A stretch of 64,000 nucleotides of DNA, taken from Ostrea edulis. Its lineage: Eukaryota. The translations under genes were made by a program, and so were the position numbers. Each line of letters opens with the position of its first letter. Positions within the stretch are counted from its first letter, which is position 1. Location: assembly GCF_947568905.1 (NCBI RefSeq), contig NC_079172.1:22878001-22942000 (forward strand), given 5' to 3'. Below are positions 8,437 to 46,606 of this stretch, in pieces. The notes under the pieces were generated by a model, which saw nothing but the letters and a program-made list of their open reading frames with translations, did not search any database and was not told the DNA's origin.

Positions 8437-8988
8437 CGAGTTATCATATATTTACACATATGAAATACGGTTTCCCTTATTGTGGCAAAACCCGACACCC
8501 CGGGGGCCATGATTTGAACAAACTTGAATTTGAACTATGTCAGGAAACTTCGATGTAAATTTGAACTCTTCTGGCTCAATGGTTCTTGAGAAGATTTTTC
8601 CTATATAAATACATATAAAATGTGGTTTCCCCTAGTGTGGCCCCACCCGACCCCCAGGGGCAATGATATGAACAAACTGGAATCTGCATTATGTCAGGAA
8701 GCTTCCATGTAAAGTTGAACTCTTCTGGCTCAATGGTTCTTGAGAAAAATTTTCCTATATACACACATATAAAATATGGTTTCCCCATGTGTGGCCCCAC
8801 CCGACCCCCAGGGGCCATGATATGAACTGGAATCTGCATTATGTAAGGAAGCTTCCATGTAAAGTTGAACTCTTCTGGCTTAATGGTTCTTGAGAAGATT
8901 TTAAAAGATTTTTCCTATATATAAATACATATAAAATATGGTTTCCCCTATTGTGGCGCCATCCGACCCCTGGGGGACATGATATGAA
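8406..8988 (-). mobile_element. Non-autonomous Helentron-type element with oyster approx. 166-bp (Cg170/HindIII-like) satellite array, 3' part (left of the Polinton)
   Basis: End aacaagaggcccatgggccacatcgctcacc, then about 3.5 tandem approx. 160-bp units (tggttcttgagaagattttt...gatatgaacaaactggaatc) resembling the known oyster satellite family (recognised from memory). Confidence 0.75.
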
Positions 8989-9333
8989 AGTAGTATAACG
9001 CGTCCCGATAGGGAGTTCAACTGAGTGCACTTTTTATGCAAATGAGGTCAAGTAAGGGCGTTTTTGATTGGTCAAGCGGTGTTGGGGTCAACGGAGTGCA
9101 CTAGGACGGGGTCAACCCCAGCAGGGGTTGTAGAGCGGGTGAATAGACTGGGCTATGGCCGCTGGTCTATGATGCGGTACTTTCGCTTTGAGTTCCTGGA
9201 ATGAGTTCCTGCTATTTTTCTGAAAATCCAGTGAAATCCTGTGTATTAAATCTAAAAGAATAACAGTGTATTAAATCTAAAAGAATAACACAAGGTTTTA
9301 AGTTGACATGTTTATTAAAGAACAATAGTACAA
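8989..9333 (+). repeat. Left terminal inverted repeat (345 bp)
   Basis: 8989-9146 is the exact reverse complement of 29226-29383; the inner part matches with patches of divergence; contains a 2 x 25-bp tandem at 9241-9290. Confidence 0.95.
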
Positions 9334-9432
9334 TCCCCAGAGGTGGCACGGTCCCTAGTTTTACCCAGCGCTGTCTACAGGTAATATATATATAAAGCGG
9401 CGCGCGGTGCATTGGGTGTCACTTTCGACATC

Positions 9433-12400
9433 ATGTCAGACAAGTTACCTACTGGACTTCCACGGAGTTATATTGAACAGCGATTGAGATTTTTGAATGA
9501 TCAGCTGAACAGACAACGGCAGCGTGAATTACAACTTCGCAGAGAGAATCAACGACGACTACAGTATTTACAGCGGGGAGGGGGGAAAAAGAAACTCATT
9601 TCGGATTATTACAAAATTCAACTGGAACGAGGACGTCAATCACGGAAATTTAAAGTCAAGGAAAATGTCTACAATGTTGCTTTCAAACCTATTCCAGAGA
9701 AAGAAAATACAACCTTCATTCGTCGGCTCTTCCGGGATATGTTAAAAAATGTGAAACAGGAAATGCAGTGCAATCCCAATGATTATCTACGTTTAAATAT
9801 TCGGCACCCGTCTCTGGATTCAGCTATTTGGTACGAATTTACGCAGTCCAATCAGCTCAACGAGGACAAAATTCTGAACAAAATAGAATCCGTCCAGCAA
9901 TCTAAAAAGGAATTCCTAATCACCGACGGGGCAGTGCAGATGGATTTTTTCCATGTTAAATATCCACAAGGCAGCGGGTGCACTAAGAAAAAACATCTAC
10001 ACATGGATAAGGAGAAATTCAAAAACTCCAAGAGAGCGATCGTTCGCATTCAAAATCCTGAGGATTCTCTCTGCTTGTCCCGGGCTATTGTGGTAGCACG
10101 TCTACACAGCCAGAAATCAAACGACCCGGCATGGGAAACGAAATGGTTACGCATGAGAAAAGGGGATTTCAAAACGCTCGACCAGAAACGAGAAGCGATA
10201 GCCTTGATGGAACAAGCTGGGTGTGTTATGAACCACCCGTGTGGGCCGCGTGAATGGGAGCAATTACAGCACGCGCTCGCCCCACAGTATCGATTGAAAA
10301 TATTTCAATTCAAAACGAATACAACTCGTTTACGACTGGAACCTATTTACAAAGGACCGGGGTACGGGACTTGTTTGAATATCCTGCTGGATAACGAGCA
10401 TTACGATGCCATTGTGTCTATGGCTGGAGTGACGGAAAACGGATACTATTGCGATTATTGCGATGTTGGTTACAGTCACATTGAAGATCATCGGACCGTC
10501 TGTCCTCATCGATGCTCATTTTGTTTAGCCGATACCCCCTGTACCCCGGACGGGACTCAGACGAATTGCCCTCATTGTAAGGGATTTTTCAGAAATGCAG
10601 CTTGTTACCAGACCCACTTGAAACCTTACAGCAGTAATACAACAACCACGGTCTGCAGTTTAATGGGGCGGTGTAACCAGTGTCAGAAATGGATGTCCAA
10701 GCAATTATTAAAACGCCACGCGTGTGGGGGTCAAACCGAATGCCGCATCTGTCACAAAGTCGTCACCATGCCTCATCACTGCTTTGTACAGACGAAACCC
10801 AAACCTAAGAAAGAAAAAGAAGAAGAAGAGGAGTTGAAAATATACATTTATTACGATTTCGAATGCAGTCAGGAAAACGGTATTCACATCCCCAATTTAT
10901 GCGTGGCAGAACGTGTGTGTCAACATTGCGACAGTGTGGATATCGACAAGCCCTGTTCTCATTGTGAAGGATTCGGATCACAACGCCGCTTCCTATTTCA
11001 AGGCCCCGACACGTTAAAACAGTTTATGGAATGGCTCTTACAGAGCGAGACCGATGAGCAAGGCCATGTGGAACTCAAACACGATGAAGCCACCATCATT
11101 GCCCACAATTTCAAAGGATACGATGGGCAGTTTATTTTGAATTACCTGGTGCACACGGCGTGTATCAAACCCACCGTCATCCTGAACGGGAGTAAAATCT
11201 TATCCATGCAAGTCTTGGGGTTGAGATTCATCGATTCTTACAACTTTCTACCCTTTGCTCTTGCCAAGATGCCCTCTGCTTTCGGATTAACGGAATTGAA
11301 AAAAGGCTATTTCCCGCACTTTTTCAACACGACAGAGAACCAGCAGTATGTGGGTCCTTACCCGGCCGCTCATTTCTACAATCCTGACGATATGTCCACC
11401 GCCAATCGTGAAGCCTTCTATACTTGGTACCATCAACAAGAGGGCAAAGTCTTTGATTTCCAGAAAGAATTCTTAGCTTACTGCATCTCGGACGTGGATA
11501 TTTTACGCCGCTGTTGTGCCCATTTCAAATCCACCCTGTTTGATCTGGTGGAAGTAGACCCCTTTCAAGAATCCATCACGTTTGCCAGCACGGCTAATTT
11601 AGCCTACCGACGAGGATTCATGACACAGGACACCATCGCCATCATTCCTAATATGGGCTACCGGCCAGCACGACGATATTCAGCTAAAGCTTGCCGATGG
11701 CTCGCCTGGTTAGAACATCAACATCACTGCATACGACATGCTAGAAATGGGGGTGAAGTCACGCTTGGACCCTATACAGTAGATGGGTATGATGAGGAAT
11801 CCCGTATCGTGTACGAATTCTATGGCTGTTACTGGCACGGCTGTCCCACCTGTTACCCGAATCTGTTGACTGACATGCATCCTCATCGTGTTCAGCATAC
11901 GTATCAAGACCTCTACCTGGACACCTTAAAACGAGCCAGTGCTTTAGAAGACCAAGGCTATACAGTCGTGAGCATATGGGAACACGAGTTTGATCGTCAG
12001 ACCCAGACCAATGCCGACTTACAGGAATTTTTACAAGGAGTCGATATACAAGATCCTTTGAATCCCCGTGACGCTTTGTACGGAGGCCGGACCAATGCTA
12101 CACGACTGTATTGTGAGGAGGGTGACATGCGATACGTGGATGTCTGTTCCCTGTACCCGTACGTGTTGAAATACAAGCCATTTCCCGTCGACCATCCCCA
12201 AGTCATCACCAGCCATTTCACCGATGTCAGAGACTATTTCGGGCTCATTCGTTGTCGTGTCCTCCCACCCCGAGAGCTGTATCACCCCGTATTACCTTAC
12301 AAGACCGGGGGCAAATTACTCTTTCCCTTATGCCGCACCTGTGCGGAACAGCGCAACTTAGGACCCGACGAGCGGTGCCAGCACACCGATTCTGAACGCA

Positions 12401-20521: not shown

Positions 20522-21925
20522 ATGATGCACCGAGAATCTTGCGCTTGTGGCACCAGCAGTTTAGAACTGTTTAAAGTGCCCCCGACCAACGTCACTTTAG
20601 AAGATTCGAAATGGATGGAATATTACCCCATTTCCAGTACCCTCAACTCGGATACGGCTCCGATTGAATTTGAAATCAAAGGACAAGGAGATGAATATCT
20701 GGATTTATCCCAAACTTATCTCCAGATGGTATGTAAATTCACGAAAGCCAATGGAACGAATCTCGCAGGAGGCAATTCGACCTCCACCCCCGTGAATAAC
20801 ATTCTCCATTCCTTGTTCAGTGAAATCGATGTCAGTCTCAATGGAAAAGTCATTACCCCGGGGACGGATACTTATCCCTACAAAGCGTATCTGGAGAAAT
20901 TGTTGTCTTATGCACCCAAGACTCTGGAAACCCAGATGAGAGCCTGTAGCTTGTGGGAAAAAGATACGGCAGGACATATGGATGAGGTCAAATTAGAAGC
21001 TCTGGCTCAAACTCCTGTGGAATTTGCAGTAGTGTCTAACAAAGTCAACATCGCGGCCGTCATCCCGACTCCCGAGTATCCGGATGATTCCAAGAATGTA
21101 GGGTTGAGAAAACGTCACGAGAAGATTACAGACAGTAAGGAGATCGTGTTGATGGATCGATTACATCTGGATTTGTTTGAGCAAGAGAAATGTCTCCCTA
21201 ATGGCTTGGATGTCCGTCTCCGATTCAATCGCGCTCGACCCCAGTTCTACATGATGACCGCTGCCGGGAGTAGTGGGAAAGTGGCCATTCAAAGTATGAT
21301 CTTGTGGGTGAGGAAAGTCAAACCTGTGCCGAGTATCATTAATCTCATCAATCAGCAACTGAGTACTCAAACGGCGAAATATCCATTGAGACGAGTGGAA
21401 GTGAAAACCTTCACCATTCCTAGTGGCACCCAATCTAAAATCACCGATCATCTGTTTCAAGGACAGATGCCTAAACTGATCGTGTTGGGCTTTGTGGACA
21501 ATGCGGCTTTTAATGGGGATAATACCAGAAACCCCTTTCATTTCCAAAATGAGAGAGTCAAGAAATTAGAAATCAGTATCAATGGAGAAATGATGGAAAC
21601 CCGACCTTTGGAACCTAATTTCACCGACGATCAGTACCTGAGATCGTATTTGAGTCTGTACAAAGGCTTGGGAAAATTAGGTCAGGACTGGGCTCCGGAC
21701 ATTACCCTAGAAGAGTATAAAAACGGTTACACCCTCTGGTGTGTGGATTTCACGAAAGATCAAGAAGCCCAGACGGATAAATTTCATCTCATACAGACGG
21801 GGAACTTGAGAGTGGAAGTGCAATTTGCCGCCAACGTAGCCAGGACCTTAAACTGTGTGGTGTATGCCGTGTTCGACAATCTGCTAGAAATCAACAAACA
21901 ACGAGAAGTCAGCATCGATTACTAA
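20522..21925 (+). CDS. Major capsid protein (double jelly-roll, hexon-like)
   Basis: [10 protein letters not shown]...EYYP...[21 protein letters not shown] and [12 protein letters not shown] motifs of the Polinton MCP; 467 aa. Confidence 0.93.
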
Positions 21926-21932
21926 GAGAGAG

Positions 21933-22430
21933 ATGGATACTCAGCAATTGAGAGATGTTTTACAACGAGATTTAGGACCGGCGTTTGCCGGTGTGTATCC
22001 TCGAGATGTCATACCTGAGCTGTTACCTCATCACAAAGCCATCGTGGTGAATACAGACCCTCACGATCGCCCTGGAGCGCATTGGGTCTGTTTGTATTTG
22101 AGTAGCCCTACCGTCGAATATTTTGATTCTTACGGATTACCCCCCAGCCATAAAGACATCCAAGACTTTATTCAACGCCACGGAGAGACTTGGATTCATA
22201 ACACCCATTGTTATCAAGATTTGAATACGGATGTCTGTGGACAATACTGTGTGTATTTTTTACATCAACGCCATCGCCATAGAAGCACCGTACGAGAATG
22301 GTTACTTCCCTGGAAAGGCACGGCCTTACAACGCGATCGTTTTGTGGCGGATTGGTTTAAAGAGACCTTCCGAAAACCGAGAACCCATCAAGGACAAACT
22401 TGTCAATGTCAAAGACTGAATGTATTGTAA
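21933..22430 (+). CDS. Maturation cysteine protease (adenain/Ulp1-like)
   Basis: VNTD...GAHW, EYFDSYG, YQDLNTDVCGQYC give H, D, Q and C catalytic residues. Confidence 0.94.
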   Translation: MDTQQLRDVLQRDLGPAFAGVYPRDVIPELLPHHKAIVVNTDPHDRPGAHWVCLYLSSPTVEYFDSYGLPPSHKDIQDFIQRHGETWIHNTHCYQDLNTDVCGQYCVYFLHQRHRHRSTVREWLLPWKGTALQRDRFVADWFKETFRKPRTHQGQTCQCQRLNVL

Positions 22431-22515
22431 ACTATGTTATTGTTATTGTTTATAGTTGGAGTTTAATAAAACGTTGGAAAAAAAAAAAAAATTCTTGTCA
22501 TTGTAATCAACCATG

Positions 22516-22556
22516 TCTTTTCAAAAAGAATGGGTAGCCCTGAAAAGGGCTGTTTT
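22516..22556 (-). terminator. Histone-mRNA-type 3' stem-loop plus downstream element (copy 1)
   Basis: Minus strand AAAAC AGCCCTTTTCAGGGCT ACCCA TTCTTTTT GAAAAGA; stem-loop 22536-22551, downstream of ORF 22644-22940. Confidence 0.8.
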
Positions 22557-22643
22557 CTTTCTCTCTCTCTGTTCTTGGTCTTTTCTCTTCTTCTTCTCTC
22601 TTCTCCTTCTTCTCCTTCTCTTCTTCTTTTCTTCTCGGTCCCC

Positions 22644-22940
22644 TCACTGTCTGTTCTTCTTCTTCTTTCTTCTCTTCTTTTTCTGCTCCTCCGGGGGTTG
22701 CTCGTGGTCAAACACAAACACAGGCAACCACCCGTGTTTAAAAAACAATCTCCCCGGAGGCCGTTGCACCACTTCTAACTCTGCGTCCCAGTTTTCTTCT
22801 GGCGGGGGCAGATCCTGGCTCATGGGCGGTGGGGGAAGAGCCTCCCGTGAGGCCGGCGGGGTAATCTCTGCCTCCCAATCCTCCTCCCATTTGATACAAT
22901 AATCATTCACTGTAGGGTCTGGTCCTACTCTACGGCTCAT
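22644..22940 (-). CDS. Hypothetical 98-aa protein: acidic/Pro-rich with basic NLS-like tail
   Basis: EEDWEAEI and EENWDAEL repeats, LPPPP, KKKRRKKKK; has a dedicated upstream promoter and 3' stem-loop. Confidence 0.6.
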   Translation of the reverse strand: MSRRVGPDPTVNDYCIKWEEDWEAEITPPASREALPPPPMSQDLPPPEENWDAELEVVQRPPGRLFFKHGWLPVFVFDHEQPPEEQKKKRRKKKKNRQ

Positions 22941-22984
22941 GGTTCTGGTTCCTTTAAAAAATCGGAATGCCCGATTTTTGACGT

Positions 22985-23033
22985 TGCGCTCGGTTTAAAA
23001 AGGCGAGAGCGCGGACGTCCTCGAAAACATCCC
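22985..23033 (-). promoter_or_regulatory. Duplicated H4/HiNF-P-like promoter element, copy 1
   Basis: Minus strand GGGATGTTTTCGAGGACGTCCGCGCT...TTTAAACCGAGCGCA; 25/26 identical to 25044-25069. Confidence 0.65.
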
Positions 23034-23047
23034 CTACCTCAGATGGC

Positions 23048-23089
23048 TGACGTCATGTTGATGACTCATCAAAAAACACTATATAAATA
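23048..23089 (+). promoter_or_regulatory. CRE + AP-1 + TATA promoter
   Basis: TGACGTCA 23048-23055, TGACTCA 23062-23068, TATATAAATA 23080-23089, ATG at 23117. Confidence 0.7.
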
Positions 23090-23116
23090 GGTCACTTGTT
23101 ACCATTTTTCTCAATC

Positions 23117-23518
23117 ATGTCGTTTGAACGGTACGCGGATGATGAAAATGATGTACTAGTGTGTGGGTATTGCCGAGGACCTTGGAGCACTTGTGGGTGT
23201 TTTCATTATAAAAAAGAAAACATCCTGGCCAAACAGAAGTGGATAGAGAGATTGGCAGAGCTGACGTTTTATCCCTTTGTCTATAAATGTTGTGGTCACA
23301 CTAGAGAACCCTGGCTAGAGTGTAAGTGTCCGCAGCATTGTACCATCACCCCTGAAGAAGAAATAGCGCATAAGGACTGTACCTGTGAGATCTGTCAGGA
23401 GTTTAGAGAGCGCTGGACTCAGAGAAAGTTTGATCCCCGGGTGTTTCAACATTGTCCTTACAGTCAAGAACCCCGGTCAACGTGTACCTGTGAGACCTGT
23501 CAACCAGCATGTCGGTGA
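23117..23518 (+). CDS. Cys-rich putative zinc-binding protein (133 aa)
   Basis: Three copies of C-x-[YH]-x-[RQ]-[GE]-P-[WR]-x-x-C-x-C plus two CTCExC motifs. Confidence 0.7.
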   Translation: MSFERYADDENDVLVCGYCRGPWSTCGCFHYKKENILAKQKWIERLAELTFYPFVYKCCGHTREPWLECKCPQHCTITPEEEIAHKDCTCEICQEFRERWTQRKFDPRVFQHCPYSQEPRSTCTCETCQPACR

Positions 23519-24006
23519 CGGATCTACGAGGAGATGTATTATCTCTACCTTGGGTGGATGCTATTGTACAACAATGTAACTGTTTAACGGTGAAACCTCA
23601 TGGATTAAGTCAACGTATTGCCGAACGATTTCCTTGGGCTAATCTGTATGCGACCCGACAACCTTTAGGACGGAGAAATTTAGCTATAGCAGCGGATCGA
23701 GGAATACCGGGTACTGTGTGTATTATGCCTCATTCTACTCATCCTGATGTGATCTGTTTGTTAGCGCAATGGGATTACGGGAGAGGCACTCAACGCTTAC
23801 CCCTGTATGCCGATACCCCCGAACAACGTGAACTTTGGTTTCAACAATGTTTACAGGAATTAGGCACTTTGTCTTACCAGACTTTAGCGTTTCCTTATCG
23901 TATTGGATGTGGATTAGCCGGAGGCAATTGGACTCATTATAGACAATGGATTTGTGACTTTGCTTATCAGTATCATAAACATGTGTACATTGTCAAGAAA
24001 ATGTAA
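23509..24006 (+). CDS. Macrodomain (ADP-ribose binding/hydrolase; Poa1p/TARG1/DarG-like class)
   Basis: GDVL...AIVQQCNC...GLSQRIAERFP...PGTV...LLAQWDYG...LAFPYRIGCGLAGGNW. Confidence 0.9.
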   Translation: MSVTDLRGDVLSLPWVDAIVQQCNCLTVKPHGLSQRIAERFPWANLYATRQPLGRRNLAIAADRGIPGTVCIMPHSTHPDVICLLAQWDYGRGTQRLPLYADTPEQRELWFQQCLQELGTLSYQTLAFPYRIGCGLAGGNWTHYRQWICDFAYQYHKHVYIVKKM

Positions 24007-24098
24007 CTTTATTATAGCTTTATTCTAGCTATTACTTGTGTTAATAAAACTTTTTTAAAACAAACTTGTGTGTTTCTTGATTTTTGCCATAAAAAGTG

Positions 24099-24139
24099 TC
24101 TTTTCAAAAAAGTTGGTGGCCCTGAAAAGGGCCGTTTGG
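24099..24139 (-). terminator. Histone-mRNA-type 3' stem-loop plus downstream element (copy 2, perfect consensus)
   Basis: Minus strand CCAAAC GGCCCTTTTCAGGGCC ACCAA CTTTTTT GAAAAGA; stem-loop 24118-24133, 23 nt after the TGA of ORF 24157-24948. Confidence 0.9.
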
Positions 24140-24156
24140 TCCTAAGGACCGACTTT

Positions 24157-24948
24157 TCATTCCCTGCTTCCGGTAAACCGGCATAACGGGCACCGTCCCC
24201 GGGTGTGTCGCCGCTCCTGTAACTCTTCCACGCACGAGCAGCAAGCTGGGCGCTGCCCACATCCCCTGCACGTAATTCCAGAGTGTACCCTGTCTTGCCA
24301 GCAGACAGGACACTTAAACCAGATGGGAACCGCCCTATCTGCCCAGCCAGGGACAGTCATAGGGTGGTTCCTCGGGGGATGAGTTGCCACCGGTGCGTGG
24401 GTTGGTCTCGGTGGTGGTGGAGTCCTCCCTGCAAACCGGATGGTAGGTGGTGGGGGTCTTGCAGGGGCTGCTGGTCTCGGTGGTGATGCTGTGTCTGCCA
24501 CCAACAGCGACGGACTCTGGGCTGGACTGGGAGGTGGTGCGGGGGACGGTGACCGCGGTGAATACTCCACCGGTGACGCTGGTGAGTCGCTCATCGGCAC
24601 CGGGCTGTATTCCACTGGTGCCGATGGGATCGCTGGTGGTGGTGTTGTAGGCGTCGCCGGTGAGTAAGGTGGTGGTGGTGAGGGTGGCTGTGGGGCCCGT
24701 CGGCGCGGTCTCGTACCCGTGGAGATTCGAGCGGTGCGGCGGCGGGGTGCCCTCCCTTCATACTCGGCCCGCACCCGGCAGATGATCTCACGGACCCCAC
24801 TCTGGTCGAAAGGGGAGAAGGTGCTCAGGTCGTTCTCAGAACGCACGACCCAATTCTCCCCTACCCGTTCCTCAGCCACCACTACCAGCCGGTACCGGAA
24901 TCCAGGCAAGGTCTGAAAATTGTAGAGCGGGTCTCTTCTTGTAGCCAT
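24157..24948 (-). CDS. Pro/Ser-rich protein with C-terminal RING-like finger (263 aa)
   Basis: CPVC-x10-CRGCGQRPACCSC-x13-CPLC; PPPPY; YSPATPT, YSPVPMS, YSPRSPS; first ATG 24948. Confidence 0.8.
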   Translation of the reverse strand: MATRRDPLYNFQTLPGFRYRLVVVAEERVGENWVVRSENDLSTFSPFDQSGVREIICRVRAEYEGRAPRRRTARISTGTRPRRRAPQPPSPPPPYSPATPTTPPPAIPSAPVEYSPVPMSDSPASPVEYSPRSPSPAPPPSPAQSPSLLVADTASPPRPAAPARPPPPTIRFAGRTPPPPRPTHAPVATHPPRNHPMTVPGWADRAVPIWFKCPVCWQDRVHSGITCRGCGQRPACCSCVEELQERRHTRGRCPLCRFTGSRE

Positions 24949-25022
24949 TCTTCTTTCTTCTTTAAAATCCTTCAAAAATCTTCTATAACTGTGCTGGGTC
25001 ACCAGTGAAGCGAACTGGCGAG

Positions 25023-25069
25023 TGCGCCGGTATATATCGGGAAAGCGCGGACCTCCTCGAAAACATCCC
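25023..25069 (-). promoter_or_regulatory. Duplicated H4/HiNF-P-like promoter element, copy 2
   Basis: Minus strand GGGATGTTTTCGAGGAGGTCCGCGCTTTCCCGATATATACCGGCGCA, with TCACT Inr-like motif 29 nt after the TATA. Confidence 0.7.
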
Positions 25070-25503
25070 TCGCTTCGGAGACGAAGCCAAGATGGTGGCC
25101 GTCAAAATGGCGGATTTGTGCTTTCGAGTAGAGAGATTTTTCTCATTGTCTTTTTCTAGACATTCGATATCTGTGCAAGGTAGATTTAATCTGATAGATT
25201 CTGAGACGGCGAATGCGTTAAACTTATTTTTATTTTGCTACGTCGCATAGTTTTCAAAGAAACAGAGGTTAAAGAGGTCGAGTCGAGGTTCAATGTTTCT
25301 TCACCCCTCTTTAAAAATTTATTTCTCGACCATGTACATCCCTAACAACATCTCATAAGGTCTATTCGATAGAAAACACCTTATTTGATTCGATTTTCAC
25401 TCTACCTTTAGGATTTTCTGGATTCCTCAACAAATAAACCCTTCTCTGAGAGACTCAACCAAACACAGCTTTCGTGTAAACAATTTTATTCATGTCACAT
25501 ATT

Positions 25504-25722
25504 TCAAATACATAACTCCCACACACAACACCAATTCACATGTCTTTTTAAAATAGGGTCCAACATTTTTTCCATTTCTCGAATCCTGCGTTGAAATCGA
25601 TATCGATCAGCGGCTACAGTCATCCAGATACTTGTCCGGTCTTCTTCGGGTAACAGATGCACTTCATTTTGATCCAGATTAAAAGTCACACGTTTAACTT
25701 GACGTACATCTCTCGAAGACAT
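25504..25722 (-). CDS. PPP1R15/GADD34-like (ICP34.5/DP71L-type) PP1-recruiting protein, 72 aa
   Basis: KRVTF (RVxF) then EVHLL...W...AADRYRFQRRIREMEKMLDPIL, matching the GADD34/DP71L W...ARDRxRFxRRI...L signature; ATG 25722. Confidence 0.88.
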   Translation of the reverse strand: MSSRDVRQVKRVTFNLDQNEVHLLPEEDRTSIWMTVAADRYRFQRRIREMEKMLDPILKRHVNWCCVWELCI

Positions 25723-25991
25723 CGTAGTCTGATTTTCTCGATTTCTGCTCTGTCTGTGAGTCGAATTCGTTTCAATTCCTGGCCCATTAAATGAATCAGT
25801 ACTAAGGCTTGCGGGGTGATCCGGTTCTCGATCAAATACTGACAGAGACATGGATAGTCCTTTAAGCTGATGGGAAATAATTCTTCTCGCATATAGTGTA
25901 ACACAAATTCAAACTGCCCAGAATGAATGTCTGTGAGATAATCCAATACATAAACTATCGCTTTCTCTGTGATGTGGTCACTGCTGGCCAT
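25686..25991 (-). CDS. Helical paralogue 4 of tandem array (101 aa)
   Basis: MASSD start and FPISLKDY...LVLIHLMGQELK...IEKI...CLREMY, shared with its neighbours. Confidence 0.8.
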   Translation of the reverse strand: MASSDHITEKAIVYVLDYLTDIHSGQFEFVLHYMREELFPISLKDYPCLCQYLIENRITPQALVLIHLMGQELKRIRLTDRAEIEKIRLRCLREMYVKLNV

Positions 25992-26325
25992 CCTCCGGGA
26001 ATAAATGAAATGAATTAAGTTCTTCACACTTTATGTATACTTCTCGAAGCCAGTCCTTGGTGATACTTTCAATCTCGGCGGTTTTTTCAGGCATGCGTTT
26101 CTTGAATTCCTCCCCCGCGACATAAATTAACATCAACCCCGCATCGTTATAGAGATTGATGTACACATGGTTCCGTAGATCTGTATATTCGTCCAGAGTC
26201 ATTGGAAACACCCCCGCTATCAGATAATTTTTAACAGCTTGAAACACCGTATCGTCTTGCATTTTCTCCACCCATTCTAATGCATGGTTATGCGCTTTTT
26301 CTGCGATGTTGTCACTGCTGGCCAT
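25978..26325 (-). CDS. Helical paralogue 3 of tandem array (115 aa)
   Basis: MASSD...FPMTLDEY...GLMLIYVAGEEFKKRMPE...IESI...WLREVY. Confidence 0.8.
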   Translation of the reverse strand: MASSDNIAEKAHNHALEWVEKMQDDTVFQAVKNYLIAGVFPMTLDEYTDLRNHVYINLYNDAGLMLIYVAGEEFKKRMPEKTAEIESITKDWLREVYIKCEELNSFHLFPEDGQQ

Positions 26326-26353
26326 CCTCCAGGAATAAAGGAAAAGAAAACGG

Positions 26354-26707
26354 TTAGGTTTTTTTATACACCTTTTCCAGCCAGTGATCGGTAATCGCTA
26401 CAATCGCCCCAGTCTTCTCAGGTTCCCGTCGTCTAAATTCTTGGTCCATGTTATAAATCATGATCAATCCAGACTCTCTGTTCAGGTTGTCGGCTATATG
26501 CTTGCAAACGCTGGAATATTCATATAAGGTCATAGGAAATTCCCAAAAGATCAACAACTTCATGGCGAATTTATATCTCAACGGCTGTTTTTCTTTCCAG
26601 TCCTTGATACACTGTAATGCAGCGCTACGAGCGTTGTTCACCGATTCTTTGTAGTCCTCGAAATGCTGTAATACAGCGGTAAGAACGTTGTTGGTCAATT
26701 CAGCCAT
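26354..26707 (-). CDS. Helical paralogue 2 of tandem array (117 aa)
   Basis: FPMTLYEY...IADNL...GLIMIY...EFRRREPE...WLEKVY; first ATG 26707. Confidence 0.8.
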   Translation of the reverse strand: MAELTNNVLTAVLQHFEDYKESVNNARSAALQCIKDWKEKQPLRYKFAMKLLIFWEFPMTLYEYSSVCKHIADNLNRESGLIMIYNMDQEFRRREPEKTGAIVAITDHWLEKVYKKT

Positions 26708-26744
26708 GATGATCAAAATGAAAAAATTCTAAAACGTTCTTGTT

Positions 26745-27077
26745 TTATAACAGGGCAGCCATTCCTTTCATACGAATCAGTTCCACGAATCCTTTTTGTA
26801 GACAATCGCGTAAGATCCGATCAATGTCACTCATCTGGTCTGGAAGATTCTGTTTCAATTCCTCAGCATACAAATAAATCATGAGTAAACGTCCCGTATT
26901 GGTATTCTCCGCTAATGAATCAGCAATCCGTTGAAAACTATGTACATTTCTGACCTCCGGTGACATCTGTTGTACAAATTGACGAGCATTTTGAATGTGA
27001 GGATTATGTAAGGCCACGTTCATACATTGTAGTACATAACTATATCCATTTATTCTCGTAGTAGCACTGCCCCCCAT
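26745..27077 (-). CDS. Helical paralogue 1 of tandem array (110 aa), possible Bcl-2-fold protein
   Basis: SFQRIADSLAENTNTGRLLMIYLYAEEL resembles BH1 (FxxVxxELFxDGxNWGRIVxxxxF); TATAAATA on the minus strand at 27107-27114. Confidence 0.65.
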   Translation of the reverse strand: MGGSATTRINGYSYVLQCMNVALHNPHIQNARQFVQQMSPEVRNVHSFQRIADSLAENTNTGRLLMIYLYAEELKQNLPDQMSDIDRILRDCLQKGFVELIRMKGMAALL

Positions 27078-27128
27078 AGTAAATAACGAACGTTCAGAAA
27101 ACACCTGTATTTATAGGTAAAGGTTATG

Positions 27129-27181
27129 CATCACGTGATCAAACACCTGCACCACGTGATCAAGCACCTGTACGTCAGCTG
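27129..27181. promoter_or_regulatory. E-box cluster (2 x 21-bp direct repeat) in a divergent promoter
   Basis: catcacgtgatcaaacacctg 27129-27149, caccacgtgatcaagcacctg 27150-27170, then TACGTCAGCTG. Confidence 0.6.
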
Positions 27182-27216
27182 GTTTTTCTACAGTCATTCT
27201 TGTCTGACCTTCAGTC

Positions 27217-27723
27217 ATGGATACACGGAGAATTTTAAGAGCGAGACGCCGCGGCCAGGGAATACAACCAGTGGAGAATTTAACCATAGTAGAAGATTAT
27301 GTAGACGAGATGGAGATCTGGGCCAATTTAGTACAGAGATGTCGCCATCGATTACGCTGGGGCCGATCTAAAAATTGGTGTTTTGACTATGTATTGCGGT
27401 CACATGAAACAGTGGAGGATATTTACCTGCGTTTAAGTGACATGTACCTGAAAAATTCCCCCCTCATACAGTACATGATTTACCAGTTTTACACGTTATT
27501 GAACGGCACTCAAAAAGTATCGGGATTTATTCGACTGGAGAAACCACGTTACCGGAGAAGTGTATGGGTATTGTTTTGGGATGCACACTGGATGTGGGAA
27601 ACCGTCGAAGAGATACGTTTCCCCGGGAGAAGAGCTCGACAATTAGTACAACACATTATATCCGAAGATCATGACTTACACGTGTATATAGAAGAACCTG
27701 CGTATGAAGCCGGCCATTTTTAA
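27217..27723 (+). CDS. Hypothetical 168-aa protein resembling a catalytically dead CRESS-virus HUH Rep endonuclease domain
   Basis: SKNWCFDY (motif I-like), YMIYQ...GTQKVSGFIRL (motif II-like, no His), DAHW; no motif III Tyr. Confidence 0.55.
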   Translation: MDTRRILRARRRGQGIQPVENLTIVEDYVDEMEIWANLVQRCRHRLRWGRSKNWCFDYVLRSHETVEDIYLRLSDMYLKNSPLIQYMIYQFYTLLNGTQKVSGFIRLEKPRYRRSVWVLFWDAHWMWETVEEIRFPGRRARQLVQHIISEDHDLHVYIEEPAYEAGHF

Positions 27724-27742
27724 AAATAAAAACTTCATGCAC

Positions 27743-27758
27743 AGCCCTTTTTAGGGCT
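27743..27758 (+). terminator. Variant histone-type stem-loop (copy 3)
   Basis: AC AGCCCTTTTTAGGGCT AC, 19 nt after the stop of ORF 27217-27723; no clear purine-rich downstream element. Confidence 0.55.
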
Positions 27759-27811
27759 ACTTTAAACACCAATATAAGTTCCATTCCACTAAAGTCAATG
27801 TGTACCAATGG

Positions 27812-27883
27812 GCACTAGCACGCGCTGGTCGCGAGAAACCGGCTTTTCAAGTTCAATTAGTGCACTAGCACGCGCTGGTCGCG
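27812..27883 (+). promoter_or_regulatory. 22-bp direct repeat (50-bp period) upstream of the zinc-knuckle gene
   Basis: gcactagcacgcgctggtcgcg at 27812-27833 and 27862-27883, each followed by gaaaccgg(c/t)ttttc. Confidence 0.6.
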
Positions 27884-28043
27884 CGATGTTCTAGCTGAAA
27901 CCGGTTTTTCCAGAAAAAGATGATGCAACCACGTGCTCCCCACGTGCCCCTCACGAGACAGAATAGTCTAGACATTTTGCTGGCTATAAAAGCGGAGCCC
28001 CAGTGTCAGTCCTCATTCGATCTTCAATCACCTTCCAGAAGAC

Positions 28044-28961
28044 ATGGCTCAGAAACAACTAGAATTTGTGGACAAAGCTCAGAAGAAAATAGATCAGCTG
28101 GTACAGAAGGAGATGGGGCCACAAAAAGACTACATTGAACTGAAGAAAGCTAAGAGTGACGATCAGAAGACTGAACTGGGGAAGACCTCGAACTTCTTGC
28201 TCACGTCTCCAGACTACGTTGCTCAAAGAAGAAGAGAAGAGAAGAAGATGGCCCAGACCTCGAACCAGACCACGAGCTTCAATCTCACGCCTTCAGACCA
28301 CGTTGCTCGACAAGTGAAGATGGCCCAGACCTCGGATTACCTCCCTAGCCAGAATCCGACAGACCCGGGATTAGGCTTCTATTTTCCCGATTCACAGGAC
28401 GCTACGGGACTGGAGATGGGCTTATACGATAAACCCCCCTTCGGCGGAGAAGATTCCCCCATGAGCAGGACCGATTTCGCCATCATTACCACGACACTCG
28501 ACGGGATCGTTAACCGCATTAATGTGCTGAGTAATGAGATTGGAAATCATACCACAATCCTACTGAAGAAGCTGGAAGACCTGACTTCTAAAAAACCTAG
28601 GAAGGAATACACTCCAGATTACACTGCTAACCCGTGCTACACGTGTGGAGAAACAGGACATTGGTCGCCGGATTGCCCACAGAAAACAGATTATCCGCAG
28701 ACCAGTAAGAAATCGTGGTCGGCAGATTCTCAACAGACCAGCAAGAAAACCAAACAAAAGGATCCTTGCTTCAAATGCGGAAAAATAGGACACTGGATTA
28801 GTGAGTGTCCAGAAGAACAAGCGGAGATAGATGCGATGATTGGACCCGTACCTGGCTCAAAACCCCCTGTGAAGAGAGAATACACACCGTTAGAGATGTG
28901 GAATCCACCCGCACCTACTGAAGAACGGCCAAAAAAGAAGAAGAAACTCAGCAGAAAGTAA
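28044..28961 (+). CDS. Coiled-coil plus double CCHC zinc-knuckle protein with C-terminal NLS (305 aa)
   Basis: CYTCGETGHWSPDC and CFKCGKIGHWISEC; RPKKKKKLSRK; TATA 27985, Inr 28013, AATAAA 29052. Confidence 0.85.
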   Translation: MAQKQLEFVDKAQKKIDQLVQKEMGPQKDYIELKKAKSDDQKTELGKTSNFLLTSPDYVAQRRREEKKMAQTSNQTTSFNLTPSDHVARQVKMAQTSDYLPSQNPTDPGLGFYFPDSQDATGLEMGLYDKPPFGGEDSPMSRTDFAIITTTLDGIVNRINVLSNEIGNHTTILLKKLEDLTSKKPRKEYTPDYTANPCYTCGETGHWSPDCPQKTDYPQTSKKSWSADSQQTSKKTKQKDPCFKCGKIGHWISECPEEQAEIDAMIGPVPGSKPPVKREYTPLEMWNPPAPTEERPKKKKKLSRK

Positions 28962-29034
28962 TGGACTGTGCTTGAACTGTTATGCTTATTGAACTGTTTT
29001 TATGCTTATTGAATTGTTTTGCATTGTTCTATGC

Positions 29035-29383
29035 TTGTACCATTGTTCTTTAATAAACATGTCAACTTAAAACCTTGTGTTATTCTTTTAGATTTAATAC
29101 ACTGTTATTCTTTTAGATTTAATACACAGGATTTCACTGGATTTTATACCGATTTTCAGAAAAATAGCTTTTCCAGGAACTCAAAGCGAAAGTACCGCAT
29201 GCTAAAATTAGGACCATAGGCCAGCCTATTCACCCGCTCTACAACCCCTGCTGGGGTTGACCCCGTCCTAGTGCACTCCGTTGACCCCAACACCGCTTGA
29301 CCAATCAAAAACGCCCTTACTTGACCTCATTTGCATAAAAAGTGCACTCAGTTGAACTCCCTATCGGGACGCGTTATACTACT
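29035..29383 (-). repeat. Right terminal inverted repeat (349 bp)
   Basis: Reverse complement of 8989-9333. Confidence 0.95.
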
Positions 29384-29810
29384 TATGAACAAACTTGAAT
29401 CTCCATTATGTCAGCAAACTTCCACGTAAATTTCAACTATACTGGTACAGTGGTTCATGAGATTTTATTAAATGACCCCACCCTATTTTTACACTTTTGT
29501 GATTATCTCCCATTTGAAGAGAACCTGGCCCTTAATTTGAACAATTTTGAATTCCCTTCAACTAAGGATGATTTGCATTAAGTTTGAATGAAATTGGCTT
29601 ACTGGTTCTGGAGAAGATTTTTAAAAATTTTCAGTGTATTTTTACCGATTTGCTATTATCTCCCCTTGGATAAGAGGGTTGGCCCTCATTTGAACAATTT
29701 TGAATCCCCTTCACCCAAGGATGATTTGTGCCAACATTGGTTAAAATTGGCCCTATGGTTTTGGAGAAGTTGAAAATGTAAATGTTTAACAGACAGACGA
29801 CGGACAAAAA

Positions 29811-30975: not shown

Positions 30976-32665
30976 TTACAGAATGATACATTTTGCACCC
31001 ATGCTAGTGTGAGCAGATGTATTCAGACTGTCATTTAATGACAAGGTGGATTTCTCTTTTCCTTTGCTTTTCAGTTTTTTGATTTTACTCTCCTTTTTGC
31101 TCTTTCCTTTCGGAACAATGTCTTTGTTCACCATGTCTGGCCGGACCCTTCCTGGAGTACTTTTTCTTTCTGCTAATTTACCACTATGCTGCACAGGAGA
31201 GCTCAATTCAGGGGGGACAACTTGGACTGTTTTGTGAGAAACTTTGTCCACATTTTCCTGAGTGACAGTTTCCACTTTGGTCTCTTCATTTCCAGAATCT
31301 CCATTAGGTAGAGTAAGCTTGACCAGCTTCACCTGAGGCATCTCATCTGCTGTTGTCATAGTTTTAGATGACTTTATCCCTTTAGGGGTCTTCATGGGAG
31401 TTTTGAATTCCATGGAATCATCAAGAGAAATATTTTCAACTGCCACATCACCAGTTCCCTTCATTTTGGCTGGAGTTTTCCTGTAGGCTTGTCTGGATTT
31501 TCTGGTGGACGTTTCGGACACTGCCTGGGTCACTTTGACCTTCTTTACTTGTGGGGTCTCAGAGGTGAGGTCCATCCTCCGCTTCACGCCTGTAAAACTC
31601 AGACTGTCATCCTCTTTGTTCTCGTTTACTTCAGGTGAAAATGTCACATTTGTTTCCTCAGAAGCAGATTTTGTTAACTTCACCTCCGTTTTAGTGTTAG
31701 CTTCTAACTGTTCCATCTCTATCTTCTTTGTACTTCTTTTGCTTTTAGCTGATGACCTTAGTCTTCTGGAAGCAGACTGGACTGGTGTTGTCTTCTTTGT
31801 ACTAGCTGTATCCTTCGGTGTACTGGGCTTGACATCATTCATTGACTTTGAAACTCGAACTGGAGTCTTCCTGGAACTACGCTGTGATCTTTTTGCAGAT
31901 TCTGGTTGTGCATCCTCTGATGTACTGGACACTGGGCGGGCAGGGGTTTTCCTGGAACTACGCTGTGATCTTTTTGCAGATTCTGGCTGTGAATCCTCTG
32001 ATGTGCTGGACACTGGACGGGCAGGGGTTTTAAAAACACCTTCTACTGGTTCTGGCATGCTCTTTCCTTTGGCTGATTCAGCAGTAGAGCGTCTCGGGGT
32101 CTTTATTGTTTTTTTGGCTGGTGAAGGTGAAGCTACTTTTTCAGATCTTTTGGCAATAGGTTGGACTGATTTTCTCCTAGTGACGGATCCTTCACTAGAC
32201 TGGGAGGATGGCACTTCTAAATTTGTTATCTGCTTGGAAGTTCTAACTGGAGATTTTGGACAAACTGACCTACGGGCAGCTGGCGCCTTTCGTTGAACTG
32301 CACTCTCTTTTTTTTCACTGACCCTTGTAACTCTCTTGGCTTGACCAGTTTTAGAAGCCTTTAGGGGCTGGGAACAAGCTTCCTGGAGAGTTTGACCTTT
32401 CTGGTACACCGATGACCTTCTGGTACGTGTCTTCACACCAGGAGGTGAGAGCACCTTGGCTGGACCTTTCTTCGGCTTTTCCTGTGGAGTAACAGCTATA
32501 GTTAGCCTTATTCCTCCTTTCCTACTATTGACATTGAATATGGATGACCGTCGGGATCGAGTGCCTATTGGGGAGGACCTCACAGGCTCTGGGAGTTTGA
32601 ACATGGTGTGTCTTCTGAAGTTGGTGGCTTTCTGGGATATTGTTCCCGTTGGCATAACTGATTTC
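30976..32665 (-). CDS. Large exon of an unidentified Lys/Ser/Thr-rich disordered protein (3' structure uncertain)
   Basis: Acceptor tgtag at 32666, phase-compatible with the upstream exon; long open frame with a 27-aa tandem KTPARPVSSTSED[SA]QPESAKRSQRSSR x2. Confidence 0.7.
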
Positions 32666-34985
32666 CTACAATAAGCAATGAATATCGGTAAAACTCTACA
32701 TCCCCCAGAAATTCCAAACTTCTCCAGCATCATTCTGATTATTAGATGTTACATGAAATTTCCAATGGTTCTTGCAAAGCAGGGCCTGAAACTAACTTTT
32801 TATGTCACCAGTCCAGTCAGACTGATAGGGTATAATTTCAACCAGTCTGCAGAAAAATCTACCCTTTTCAAGAAATAATTAAACAATATTTCGTTAATGT
32901 TATTGAAAAAAAAAAAAGGAATTTAACTCGAAATATCTCAGAAAATATTGTATTACACATGTGACATATATATTTAGTAATCGGGTTCTTATATCTACAG
33001 AGAATGCCAAATGTGTGTTCAAGATTTGACAAGTGGGTTTTCCAAAATAATGTGTTACAAAATTGACTAGTCCCATCAGACTGACTAAAACAAATGTCAA
33101 TCAGTCTGTCAGACTTTTAACCAGTCACAGACTGATGGGCAAATGTTAGTTTCAAGCCCTACAAAGGTTATATTCAAACAATATTCTACAAACAATATGT
33201 GCTTGTGAAAATAATGAAACATTAACACTCCCACAGCAACACCAGTTATCTGTAGAATGGAGGTCAAAGTACACATTTCCAAATAATTTTCAATGTTGCT
33301 ACCATCCTACAATCTAAAATGAACTCCTGGTTAACTTAAGAGTAAGGAGTACCAATATATCAATTGATAAAAAGTGCTATTTAACTGTCCAGTAAACATG
33401 GTTAAATCTGATGTAGCCAGGGCACCTAATACAAGACAAAGTTTGATTAGATACAATGATTTAAAATGGGATTGATGTACATAAATGTAACTGTAATAAT
33501 GGTTGTATATAAAAATGTAAGATTATGACTCCTAAGAAAAGCAATATATTATAATGGCAAGGTCAAAACCTTAGGTACCAAATGAAAAGTCTTGTCATGA
33601 GGAATGCACATATGAAAATATCAGTCAAGGGTCATGTTATTTTCAAAAATAACTCAAATGAGGATTTTTTTTGGGGGTCATGATGAGTTACTTCTCTTTG
33701 CTCTCAACTGCTCCTGTCCTTCACCAATATTAGTCTTTCCTTCATTAATAACTGATTTACTCAAACAGGTTATCCTTAGTTATTTTGTTTACATTATTTA
33801 GTCAATCCCCCTCACTTCACACCACATATTTTCACTGGTGGAATAAGACAAAAACAAATGGTGGTTTTTTTAAAGCTTGCTTAATCCAGGAAAATTATTC
33901 AAAGTCTTCAGAAAAGTGTGAAAAATTGTTCCATTGTTGATAAAATTCCACCTCAAAATGTAAATTAACACCCCAAAGAGCAAGTAGTAATTTAAATTTT
34001 TGGGTGGAATGGGCTACAGTCTTTTGATGCAAATGTTTATTGGAGTCTGTATATCTTTTTTGTTCTTACATCTGGAATCCCAGAATGCAATATACATTGC
34101 CAGGAAATACAAAAGATCAAAGATTTCAGATGAAATCAATGACACTGTAAGATAGAACAATAACGATTAAATGTTATTTTTGAAATATATATGTGTGTGT
34201 TTCAAATAACTTATGTGTGTTATTTTTTAAATAACATGACTGTCTGTTATGCCTCTGATTGATCACTCACGATTCCAAAGTTATAAGCAAGGATAAAAGT
34301 TTCTGACAGACAGGACAACAATTATATATGCCCTCCAATCTTTAATACAGGTGCATAAAAATAAAGTAAAATCATTGTTGATTTTACCAATGGAAAATTC
34401 TAATAAGTGAAATCTATTCCAGTATAAATATTGTGTTGCATCTGGAAAAAATTGTTCAATACACAGCTCTATATTGCTTGTTCATCTATACACAGCTTAC
34501 CTTTCTTTCCCAACATTTATAACAGGAGAATGTTCTTGCTCAAAAACCATCTGCCTCCCCGACACCCAGCCTGGAGTTATCGGGCTGTAAAACTTTGCAG
34601 GGGACAACCTGTTATAAAATGGGGATATAGATATATATTATCATAAAATTCAGATTTTAATACCCAATACCAACGTTTTTCTGATATTAGCTCGCTCACT
34701 TGAGTGTTTGAAAAGTGTGTAGCCTTGAATCTCAGAGGTAAAATGAACATTCTAAGCTTAATTGCTATAATAATTACTGTAATACATGTAGATGTTGAAG
34801 AATTTACCCATATTGTATTAAAATATCAATATGGGATTGCCTGAACCCCTATATCCCTAACATTGTCATGTTGTTCTGGAGAAGGTCAATGTCACAAAGC
34901 CAAACATTATAGTATGAAATGAAATCTTGTCGTATTAATCTAAATACAAAATATGAAACCCTGATAAACAATTTCTACAACTTAC

Positions 34986-45344: not shown

Positions 45345-46606
45345 GTAAGTCATTACGACAAATTTACTCAGTCATATTTTCAGTACAAAATTATTGATCA
45401 TTGACAAGAATTAAAAAGTTATTTTTATTTGTTGTTGTAATTCATTATCTATTGTGTGAAATTTGAAAATTATTTTCGTAGTTTAGAGGTATTTTGTATA
45501 TGAATTGTTGAAGAGAAGAGTGGGAGTAGATGTTTAAGAATAATGATCATATTCATTCTTGTTATTTGTAGTAAACAAAAAGAAACTGGAAAGGAGGGTA
45601 AGTGGAAAATAACGATAATTCCATGGTGATTATGATAATTTTAAAGATGTAAATTAGTGCTGTCTATGAATAGTTGATATAAATGAATACCTATCATTTT
45701 GTCCAAATGAGCTTGAATGTAAGTTTTTATTGTCAGTCAGACTATGAAAGAGGCCAGTCTTCATTTTACACTAATCTTGGTTGAGATTCAGCTTGGCTGA
45801 ATATTTAGACTGACGCCTTCACTGAATCTCAGAGCAGTTCTTCATAATTCATGTCTGGAAATTTACTTCCAGTTTCGGCTGGTTCTAGCTATTAATGTGC
45901 ACTTAGATTGCACTGCTGTTTGCTTCAGATATTAAGTGGTTTGACTATTAAACTAACTATCACTATTAATCTTGCATTGCTTACCGTGTAAGTATGAAAA
46001 TTCCAAAATGAAAACTGTCCCTAAATTTTCCGTTCAGATGAAGACTTCCACCGCACAATATTTTGTATTCTGAAATTGAAAAGTTCCAATTGTCTGTTTT
46101 ATCAAATTACTGATACATTGTATTGATCTCCACATACCTACTCGTACATTGCTAATTTAAGAACAAACTATGGAAACTCTTCAGTTTCGGGAGATAAAGT
46201 ATTGTGCCATCCAAATATTCAGCCAGGCCGAATCTCAGCTGAGATTACATTTTACACAACTCTGGATTGGAAATACTTTCACTTAATTAAGCTATTTTAA
46301 ATTTGAATGTACCCATTACTTTCCAGTCTTTGCCAGTGGGAAATCCTATAATTGCTGCAGGTAAGACTATTTTAAACTTGAGATAAATTGAAAAATAAAA
46401 ACAGAAGAATTGCTTTTGGCATCATGTAAATTTTAATTGAAAATGGTCAAATTGCATGATAAATGGCACATTTACAGCTACAAGAAAAAAGCTGAGCATA
46501 AGGATTGAATCATCTCTGTTGCAGTTCTCCAAATTCCATTAATTAACACATATTAATGGATTTTATGTGGTGTTTCTTCTTCATTATCTGGGTGTGTTTT
46601 TTCCAG

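Follow-up and report, generated by a model that had tools for sequence, protein, structure and literature searches.

A Polinton within a host tandem repeat

We analysed a stretch of 64,000 bp from Ostrea edulis (contig NC_079172.1, positions 22,878,001 to 22,942,000), hereafter the window, in which an original prediction had placed an intact, young Polinton with an unusually broad arsenal of counter-defence genes. The element, a Polinton of the Maverick/adintovirus type, occupies positions 8989-29383 (20,395 bp, 45% GC). It interrupts an array of a 154-bp tandem repeat (8456-8988 and 29390-29770) that is highly repeated in the host. The ends of the element consist of target-site duplications (TSDs) and terminal inverted repeats (TIRs):

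8983..8988, left TSD (6 bp, TATGAA), within the 154-bp host tandem repeat
8989..9333, + strand, left TIR with AGTAGT end; its outer 158 bp equal those of the right TIR
29035..29383, - strand, right TIR with ACTACT end
29384..29389, right TSD (TATGAA)

The perfect TSD and the 158 bp of identical outer TIR, on which the prediction had relied, were both seen on re-analysis. In full, the TIRs measure about 345-349 bp and include a short divergent patch. The element is GC-richer than its flanks, which have observed/expected CpG ratios of 0.57 and 0.46, compared with 0.92 in the element. It carries TATA boxes and AATAAA signals that fit transcription by host RNA polymerase II.

The core and virion open reading frames (ORFs) are listed below, with Pfam matches where these were obtained (aa, amino acids):

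9433..13395, + strand, protein-primed DNA polymerase B (pPolB), 1320 aa; DNA_pol_B_2 PF03175, E=2e-55; exonuclease and polymerase motifs
14000..14638, + strand, packaging ATPase of the A32/FtsK type; Pox_A32 PF04665, E=5e-7
14652..15560, + strand, basic 302-aa protein with a C-terminal C2H2-like finger, putative core protein
15472..16694, + strand, two conserved ORFs of 152 aa (real start probably further in) and 255 aa
16676..17761, + strand, rve integrase (E=2e-11) with C-terminal chromodomain (chromo, E=4e-8)
17728..18457, + strand, 95-aa hydrophobic (membrane-type) ORF and 149-aa ORF, kept among copies
18580..19575, + strand, probable penton or minor capsid protein, 331 aa, by position, size and conservation
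19750..20442, + strand, basic 230-aa probable virion core protein
20522..21925, + strand, probable double-jelly-roll major capsid protein (MCP), 467 aa, by position, size and conservation
21933..22430, + strand, maturation protease of the adenain type; Peptidase_C5 PF00770, E=3e-4, 21.0 bits against a cut-off of 21.3

All core ORFs are open, as predicted, and all core genes lie on one strand; the polymerase motifs are present. The AGTAGT...ACTACT TIRs, the 6-bp TSD, the protein-primed PolB, the rve integrase, the A32 ATPase and the adenain protease are those of a Polinton/Maverick. The 467-aa and 331-aa ORFs are probable major and minor capsid proteins. No relatives of the MCP were found in IMG/VR, and viral and metagenome scans yielded no named relative of the hexon; the metagenome scan returned one short relative and one spurious match. 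The basic protein at 19750..20442 is what we take to be a 'pX-like' protein. A profile search for an OTU-like domain at the N-terminus of pPolB gave no match; only Cys214 and His323 were seen there, in patterns which we take to mark putative vOTU residues. A layout of terminal protein, vOTU, exonuclease and palm has been described for pPolB, together with release of the terminal protein by the vOTU (PMC11161782; here and below, comparisons refer to the accessible text of the cited sources). Furthermore, the integrase carries a C-terminal chromodomain, a combination counted among the defining traits of adintoviruses (10.1101/2024.03.25.586562).

Copy number and age

Searches with the MCP scored 91 of 270 candidates, and the resulting copy counts are therefore lower bounds. 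In total, 78 of the scored candidates were 97-100% identical to the MCP of the window, while 13 were 87-88% identical and represent a sister family. Only two of the 78 copies had an internal stop in the MCP, leaving 76 without. The element matches fall on ten large contigs. We compared the window copy with 31 others, comprising 12 full-length copies picked for the similarity of their TIRs and 19 copies picked for their macrodomain, of which both end regions were used (N19 lacks the left one). A further locus, N20 (L095/L115), was left out of all counts. The copies are 96-99% identical over 20 kb. The two TSDs match in 17 of the 18 macrodomain-selected copies read at both ends, with a single mismatch in the other one. 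Among the 12 TIR-selected copies, they match in seven of the eight with both ends detected, and four could not be scored. pPolB is intact in 22 of the 31 other copies.

The window copy differs from all others at only 25 of 19,681 sites, and seven of these private sites fall in one short tract. This 9-bp tract within pPolB (11623-11631) differs from all 31 other copies at seven positions and equals the sister family except for the first base, probably as a result of micro-scale gene conversion. The age assigned by the original prediction thus holds, on these few private changes and not on TIR identity. Within copies the left and right TIRs are 98.7% alike, whereas between copies the likeness is 91.4% (29 copies) and the difference reaches up to 18%. 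Hence, TIR identity mirrors the replication mechanism; because the TIRs are homogenised within each copy, it is no evidence of age. Strong CpG decay was not found: 62 of 610 singletons are CpG transitions, and CpG covers 9.6% of the sites. In public run X12 the depth over the element was flat at about 20-25 on long contigs, compared with about 1500 in the flanking repeat, a hint of far fewer copies in that sample; depth is not copy number, and we did not rely on it.

In our judgement the element is likely to be an endogenous adintovirus-type Polinton of a bivalve, whose family counts 78 or more copies of recent insertion.

Accessory genes

The accessory genes are homologues of viral counter-defence proteins, in the case of the Bcl array probable ones and in that of RING263 putative. 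The original prediction had named an IAP, a GADD34-type recruiter of protein phosphatase 1 (PP1), a macrodomain, a RING protein and a possible array of Bcl-2-fold proteins:

13431..13958, + strand, IAP with a single BIR (Pfam, E=1e-15) and a C-terminal RING (E=2e-11), 175 aa; three alleles in the family
23509..24006, + strand, macrodomain of the ALC1/TARG1 class, SCO6735/BT1257 subclass, intact in the window copy
24157..24948, - strand, RING263, a Pro-rich 263-aa protein with a PPxY motif and an atypical Cys-rich, RING-like C-terminal domain
25504..25851, - strand, PP1 recruiter resembling DP71L and GADD34, 115-aa form overlapping BclD, with a 72-aa core from 25722
25686..27077, - strand, four tandem paralogous helical proteins of 101-117 aa (about 110), with a compact Bcl-2-like fold predicted for the first:
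26745-27077, - strand, BclA
26354-26707, - strand, BclB
25978-26325, - strand, BclC
25686-25991, - strand, BclD

The IAP is a clear BIR and RING protein, with the BIR signature CX2CX16HX6C and the RING at the C-terminus. The PP1 recruiter was called correctly as well. Its best match in the PDB is DP71L of African swine fever virus (ASFV; E=5e-5), and PPP1R15B also matches; against Pfam PP1c_bdg it scored E=2e-5 and 24.9 bits (cut-off 26.1). It carries the RVxF motif as RVTF, the LxxxL motif and, bar one position, the eIF2-alpha-binding consensus (PMC5346070). Both leucines of the LSAVL motif of DP71L are kept. Over 25686-25851 (- strand) the frame of the recruiter extends upstream without a stop for some 45 codons and overlaps BclD, both in the window and in the very different sister allele. 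Because the sister allele has no internal Met, the overlapping form of 110-115 aa is probably used in the sister. RING263 has eight Cys with RING-like spacing, no His ligand and no whole-protein Pfam match.

A profile of A-type sequences alone detected BclB, BclC, BclD and the alternative BclD allele (E=1e-10 to 5e-5), while the next best of the 102 ORFs of the window reached E=0.4. The model of BclA, based on 19 sequences, is a compact five-helix bundle with a predicted local distance difference test score (pLDDT) of 87. In fold searches, Bcl-2 proteins ranked first in all three libraries. The neighbours of BclA include orf virus ORFV125 (E=0.32, prob 0.96) as well as F1L, A179L and BAK (Z 6.9-6.6); among viral folds, the Bcl2 of a lancelet adintovirus matched best. 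Pfam Bcl-2 matched one of the four paralogues only (E=0.0066). None of BclA-D has a hydrophobic tail that could form a C-terminal transmembrane anchor, a feature that is common but not universal in the Bcl-2 family. They have an N-terminal Gly motif, which we take to suggest myristoylation. The ESM Atlas gave no usable match for BclA, and IMG/VR contained no relatives of the array. Since no single score is significant, a Bcl-2-like identity of BclA-D is probable, not proven. The predicted array is thus present as four paralogues, with its Bcl-2 assignment at modest scores.

The macrodomain has no whole-protein Pfam match. A profile built from 61 aligned sequences of the 120 relatives listed matched BT1257 best in the PDB (E=3e-9), followed by SCO6735 and TARG1. 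PF01661 occurred in only one of the 120 listed relatives, and a MacroD type was accordingly rejected; the macrodomain of the original prediction is present, in the ALC1/TARG1 (SCO6735) class instead. The protein contains the loop RIGCGLAGG, has Gln at the position of the catalytic Lys of TARG1 and DarG, and retains the Asn partner. In the alignment Gln87 is invariant and Asn24 near-invariant; both align with BT1257 and correspond to Gln85 and Asn27 of SCO6735. Mutation of these two SCO6735 residues abolishes, or nearly abolishes, the removal of thymidine-linked ADP-ribose (PMC9411070).

The macrodomain is intact, at 99% identity or more, at at least 40 loci, and we therefore rejected the idea that only the window copy has it intact. 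A 309-bp in-frame stretch inside the gene, between two 7-bp repeats, is missing in 11 of the 12 TIR-selected copies. We give no deletion frequency, because selection by TIR and selection by macrodomain skew the two samples in opposite ways. Among the relatives listed, the only named close homologues are proteins of Saccostrea. At least 14 'uncharacterized' proteins of Saccostrea cucullata (P0013, P0014, P0139-P0150) are macrodomain homologues, a sign that this species may harbour a related multicopy element.

Relatives of the macrodomain on viral contigs come mostly from large genomes, and 14 of 79 loci are metagenome-assembled genomes (MAGs) of giant viruses. These closest viral-contig relatives imply past co-infection. 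They would fit a virophage-like or helper-dependent element that is activated by a large DNA virus and replicates on it, with accessory genes that sustain production in the co-infected cell or reduce harm to the host; an association of Polinton-like viruses with entomopoxviruses is also reported in the accessible literature. However, the element encodes a polymerase of its own and has TATA boxes and AATAAA signals, so that a helper is not obviously needed, and the present data hold no link to any particular large virus. We consider helper dependence improbable.

Recombination and allele exchange

Copy number, recombination and exchange with the sister family had all escaped the original prediction. 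Among 373 sites in 13 copies, four-gamete incompatibility rose from 4.8% at distances below 100 bp to 65% at 5 kb or more. Within pPolB, incompatibility between neighbouring sites (0.32) was lower than in all 500 permutations (mean 0.46). The copies are recombinant mosaics.

Whole accessory alleles have been exchanged too. Eight of the 31 other copies carry a second IAP allele (69% aa identity) and six a third; the second is 96-97% identical to the IAP of the sister family. Likewise, a second BclD allele (39%), found in six of the 31, is 93-97% identical to the BclD of the sister family, which natively carries both second alleles. An allele of RING263 with 40-53% identity was found in two of the 31 copies. 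The Bcl array consists of three or four genes. All 31 copies retain the PP1-recruiter motif as well as BclA, which is frameshifted in two. The synonymous distance between the window copy and the sister family is 0.65-1.5 in core genes and only 0.11-0.17 in BclC, the PP1 recruiter and RING263. These low values imply a recent movement of accessory genes between the two lineages.

In a third, more divergent lineage (L212:2316-8886; L198-L204) we observed genes resembling BclC, BclD and the PP1 recruiter together with a RING remnant. They lie near an end of the AGTAGT type, with no core gene in the stretch read; this lineage is possibly a non-autonomous derivative.

Near-identical repeats of 20 kb, such as these copies at 96-99% identity, could be misassembled, and the mosaics were seen in the assembly rather than in raw reads. 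Assembly artefacts might then account for the mosaics and for some of the copies. Against this, the copies have distinct TSDs and private mutations, and many of them share the same swapped alleles. Moreover, contigs of the public runs X12 and X16 diverge over 25837-26001, where the second BclD allele lies, which argues against an artefact. We regard such an artefact as highly improbable.

Selection on core and accessory genes

Ratios of nonsynonymous to synonymous divergence (dN/dS) between the window copy and the sister family were obtained by the Nei-Gojobori method from one pair per gene, with few sites in the short genes. They were below 1 in all 16 genes compared, with values of 0.07-0.24 in core and virion genes (MCP 0.09, ATPase 0.07, protease 0.18) and 0.16-0.65 in accessory genes. 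The corresponding ratio for shared variants among the young copies (pN/pS) was 0.18 in pPolB and ATPase combined and 0.40 in twelve accessory genes. For individual genes, pN/pS among young copies was 0.15 in the MCP, 0.21 in the penton, 0.03 in the ATPase and 0.07 in the protease. Hence, core and accessory genes are both under purifying selection. Neutral evolution of the accessory ORFs, with dN/dS near 1, had been set beforehand as the outcome that would speak against the original prediction; the accessory values of dN/dS (0.16-0.65) and pN/pS (0.40) do not agree with neutrality.

Selection also bears on whether the element still leaves the cell. It could be an intragenomic, self-synthesising transposon with no extracellular stage today, whose accessory genes shield the germ cell from replication stress of the element's own making. 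Linear ends and integrase breaks would then set off PARP and apoptosis along with the integrated stress response. Mosaics would arise among co-replicating or integrated copies. The high copy number, the spread of a macrodomain-deleted sub-lineage and the exchange with the sister family are all possible within one germ line, and the TARG1/SCO6735 class acts on DNA and on ADP-ribosylation of the DNA-damage type (PMC9411070). In contrast, purifying selection on MCP, penton, ATPase and protease, both among young copies and between families, speaks against such a life cycle; virion formation in vertebrate Mavericks has been argued on the same grounds (PMC8097293). Furthermore, none of the sister copies read offers a donor for the third RING allele, which is about 50% identical. 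We consider a purely intragenomic element rather unlikely, though clearly less so than helper dependence.

Comparison with known elements

The element shares with the adintoviruses of Starrett et al. (2021, PMC8502044) a pPolB (with a putative OTU here), an rve integrase with chromodomain, an FtsK/A32 ATPase, adenain, a probable penton/hexon module and inverted terminal repeats. IAP and Bcl2 homologues have already been reported in adintoviruses, and the published maps include elements of Mytilus and Pinctada (PMC8502044). The Bcl-like proteins of the window differ from these in their length of about 110 aa, the missing C-terminal anchor and their arrangement in an array of three to four genes. 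The main text and readable supplement of that source contain no term for GADD34, ICP34.5, PP1 or macrodomain, and its accessible text does not describe the allele exchange within one genome that we saw in the window family. With vertebrate Mavericks (Barreat and Katzourakis 2021, PMC8097293) the element has in common the (AGT)2//(ACT)2 ends, the 6-bp TSD, TIRs of a few hundred bp, accessory regions and purifying selection on capsid genes. Vertebrate genomes contain at most 38 intact copies according to this source, compared with at least 76 stop-free MCP copies here and an intact pPolB in 22 of the 31 sampled. The placement of all core genes on one strand is a further difference.

The PP1 recruiter shares the RVxF motif and the eIF2-alpha-binding motif with ASFV DP71L, herpes simplex virus ICP34.5 and PPP1R15A-B (PMC5346070). 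It resembles DP71L in both LSAVL leucines and in its size of 72 aa, and differs from the DP71L group in one motif position, in the overlap with a Bcl-like gene and in a possible N-terminal extension of 43 aa. BclA resembles viral Bcl-2 proteins (ORFV125, vaccinia F1L, ASFV A179L) in its modelled five-helix bundle, its central hydrophobic helix and the BH1-like NTGRL; the Bcl-like proteins are shorter than viral Bcl-2 and have no transmembrane tail. The macrodomain shares the RIGCGLAGG loop and the Asn partner with SCO6735, BT1257, TARG1 and DarG, except that Gln replaces the Lys of TARG1 and DarG (PMC9411070). It represents a distinct family, most closely related to proteins from other oysters, from metagenomes and from large viruses.

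Module-level mosaicism has been described for the wider Polinton group (10.64898/2026.10.13.758929). Coral polintoviruses are reported to express core genes (10.1101/2023.10.06.561300), and insect Polintons to have been transferred horizontally in recent times (10.1101/2025.02.07.637071). In the literature we found no DP71L/GADD34 mimic, macrodomain or counter-defence allele exchange in Polintons; subscription papers, Repbase reports and supplements were incompletely covered, and absence from print is not established. The element hence belongs to a known class, and its counter-defence region is broader and more dynamic than we found described. This upholds one part of the unusually broad arsenal of the original prediction, while its IAP and Bcl-2 components had already been published for adintoviruses.

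Proposed life cycle

The model below builds on the observed anatomy, copy number, recombination, TIR homogenisation, allele origin, purifying selection, and motif and fold similarity; the biochemical activities, the episomal stage and virion formation we infer, every one of them, from knowledge of the family. The element would replicate as a linear, terminal-protein-primed nuclear molecule from which the vOTU releases the terminal protein. Pairing of both ends during protein-primed replication would keep the TIRs of each copy identical, and the integrase would reinsert the element, making the 6-bp duplication. The module of capsid, ATPase and protease would package the element, now or in the recent past. 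IAP and Bcl-2-like proteins would block apoptosis and keep the producing cell alive, while the DP71L-like peptide would recruit PP1, so that eIF2-alpha is dephosphorylated and translation continues. The macrodomain would strip ADP-ribose from acidic residues or DNA, and RING263 may act as an E3 ligase. With its sister allele exchange and its gain and loss of genes, the accessory block would act like a viral variable region, because co-replicating genomes recombine freely.

The original prediction had taken the element for a real infectious virus of bivalves, which goes further than the present observations. A stronger version of our model holds that a bivalve adintovirus, still infectious, is now invading the germ line, that its counter-defence genes are swapped one at a time between co-infecting lineages under host immune pressure, and that the macrodomain came from giant viruses. 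Such exchange would be comparable to that in the adenovirus E3 and poxvirus variable regions. We put this forward tentatively, as a possibility of some weight that falls short of an even chance. Contigs of the public runs X16, X2 and X4 cover much of the element, and loose ends in X4 resemble an adaptor used for template switching in cDNA synthesis; these runs are not on record as RNA and provide evidence of expression neither way. Stretches free of X2 contigs were not scored as absent. None of the contigs shown spans the insertion junction, where the flank is itself repetitive.

Several observations weigh against an adintovirus-type Polinton with a functional virion module and counter-defence region. 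The element is known from assembled contigs alone, and a virion, a free linear end or protein activity has not been observed. The hexon and penton candidates found no confirming match in Pfam, NCBIfam, PHROGs or the PDB, and pPolB is damaged in nine of the 31 other copies. The C-terminal 57 aa of RING263 match zf-RING_2 at E=6e-4 and 20.5 bits, below the cut-off of 27.3; of the predicted RING protein, the RING-like C-terminal domain was retrieved, at a sub-threshold match. The fold scores of the Bcl array are modest (Foldseek E>=0.32, Z<=6.9), in a range common for helical proteins, and only BclA was modelled. Shared-variant pN/pS exceeds 1 in BclD (13 nonsynonymous, 1 synonymous) and BclB (10 and 2), at very few sites, which may indicate relaxed rather than positive selection. 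BclB is absent in five and BclC in two of the 31 copies, and 11 of the 12 copies nearest in TIR have lost most of the macrodomain yet are recently inserted. The macrodomain, BclB and BclC are therefore dispensable for spread within the genome.

Other genes and host neighbourhood

The remaining ORFs of the element are the following:

22644..22940, - strand, 98-aa acidic/Pro-rich ORF with basic tail, strongly kept among copies (pN/pS 0.09-0.13)
23117..23518, + strand, 133-aa Cys-rich ORF with no match in the four sister-family copies read
27217..27723, + strand, 168-aa ORF (orf168), weakly similar to CRESS-virus Rep (HUH; PF02407, E=0.007-0.015)
28044..28961, + strand, 305-aa protein with two CCHC zinc knuckles (zf-CCHC twice, Pfam)

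The sister homologue of orf168 (L205:5480-5905, 45% identical) matches PF02407 equally weakly (E=0.009). What we take to be the catalytic His motif of HUH/Rep is not present in either protein. A single-sequence model of orf168, for which one homologue was found, was unusable (pLDDT 41), and the ESM Atlas gave no usable match (scores <=0.77). As a lead only, orf168 may be a HUH domain that has lost its activity and now serves to bind DNA. The six small ORFs checked contain no LxCxE or PxDLS motif.

Elsewhere in the window, long exons rich in Lys, Ser, Thr and Pro and with tandem repeats lie at 43778-45397, 46543-48123 and 60925-62769 (+ strand). The exon at 46543-48123 contains the motif RVSFG..LSPE, which we take to be that of the PP1-binding domain of Ki-67/Repo-Man, and the three exons probably belong to an ordinary host Ki-67-like gene. 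A comparable low-complexity exon is present at 30976-32748 (- strand). A 45-bp minisatellite forms two arrays (50910-51332 and 54199-54857) with 96-97% matches.

Implications

The question whether the Polintons of animals are transposons or genuine viruses is an old one, and as of 2021 their particles had not been observed (PMC8097293). The present family, with dozens of copies that are intact, very young and recombining, resides in an accessible invertebrate and provides an unusually favourable natural system in which to look for transcripts, episomes or particles. Shut-off through eIF2-alpha is part of the antiviral response of oysters, in which PERK is induced by poly(I:C) (PMC9680061). The DP71L/GADD34 mimic implies selection to defeat this shut-off. 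Finally, counts of 'immune gene expansion' in annotated bivalve genomes would be inflated by the dozens of IAP, Bcl-2-like and PP1-recruiter genes that the element copies carry.

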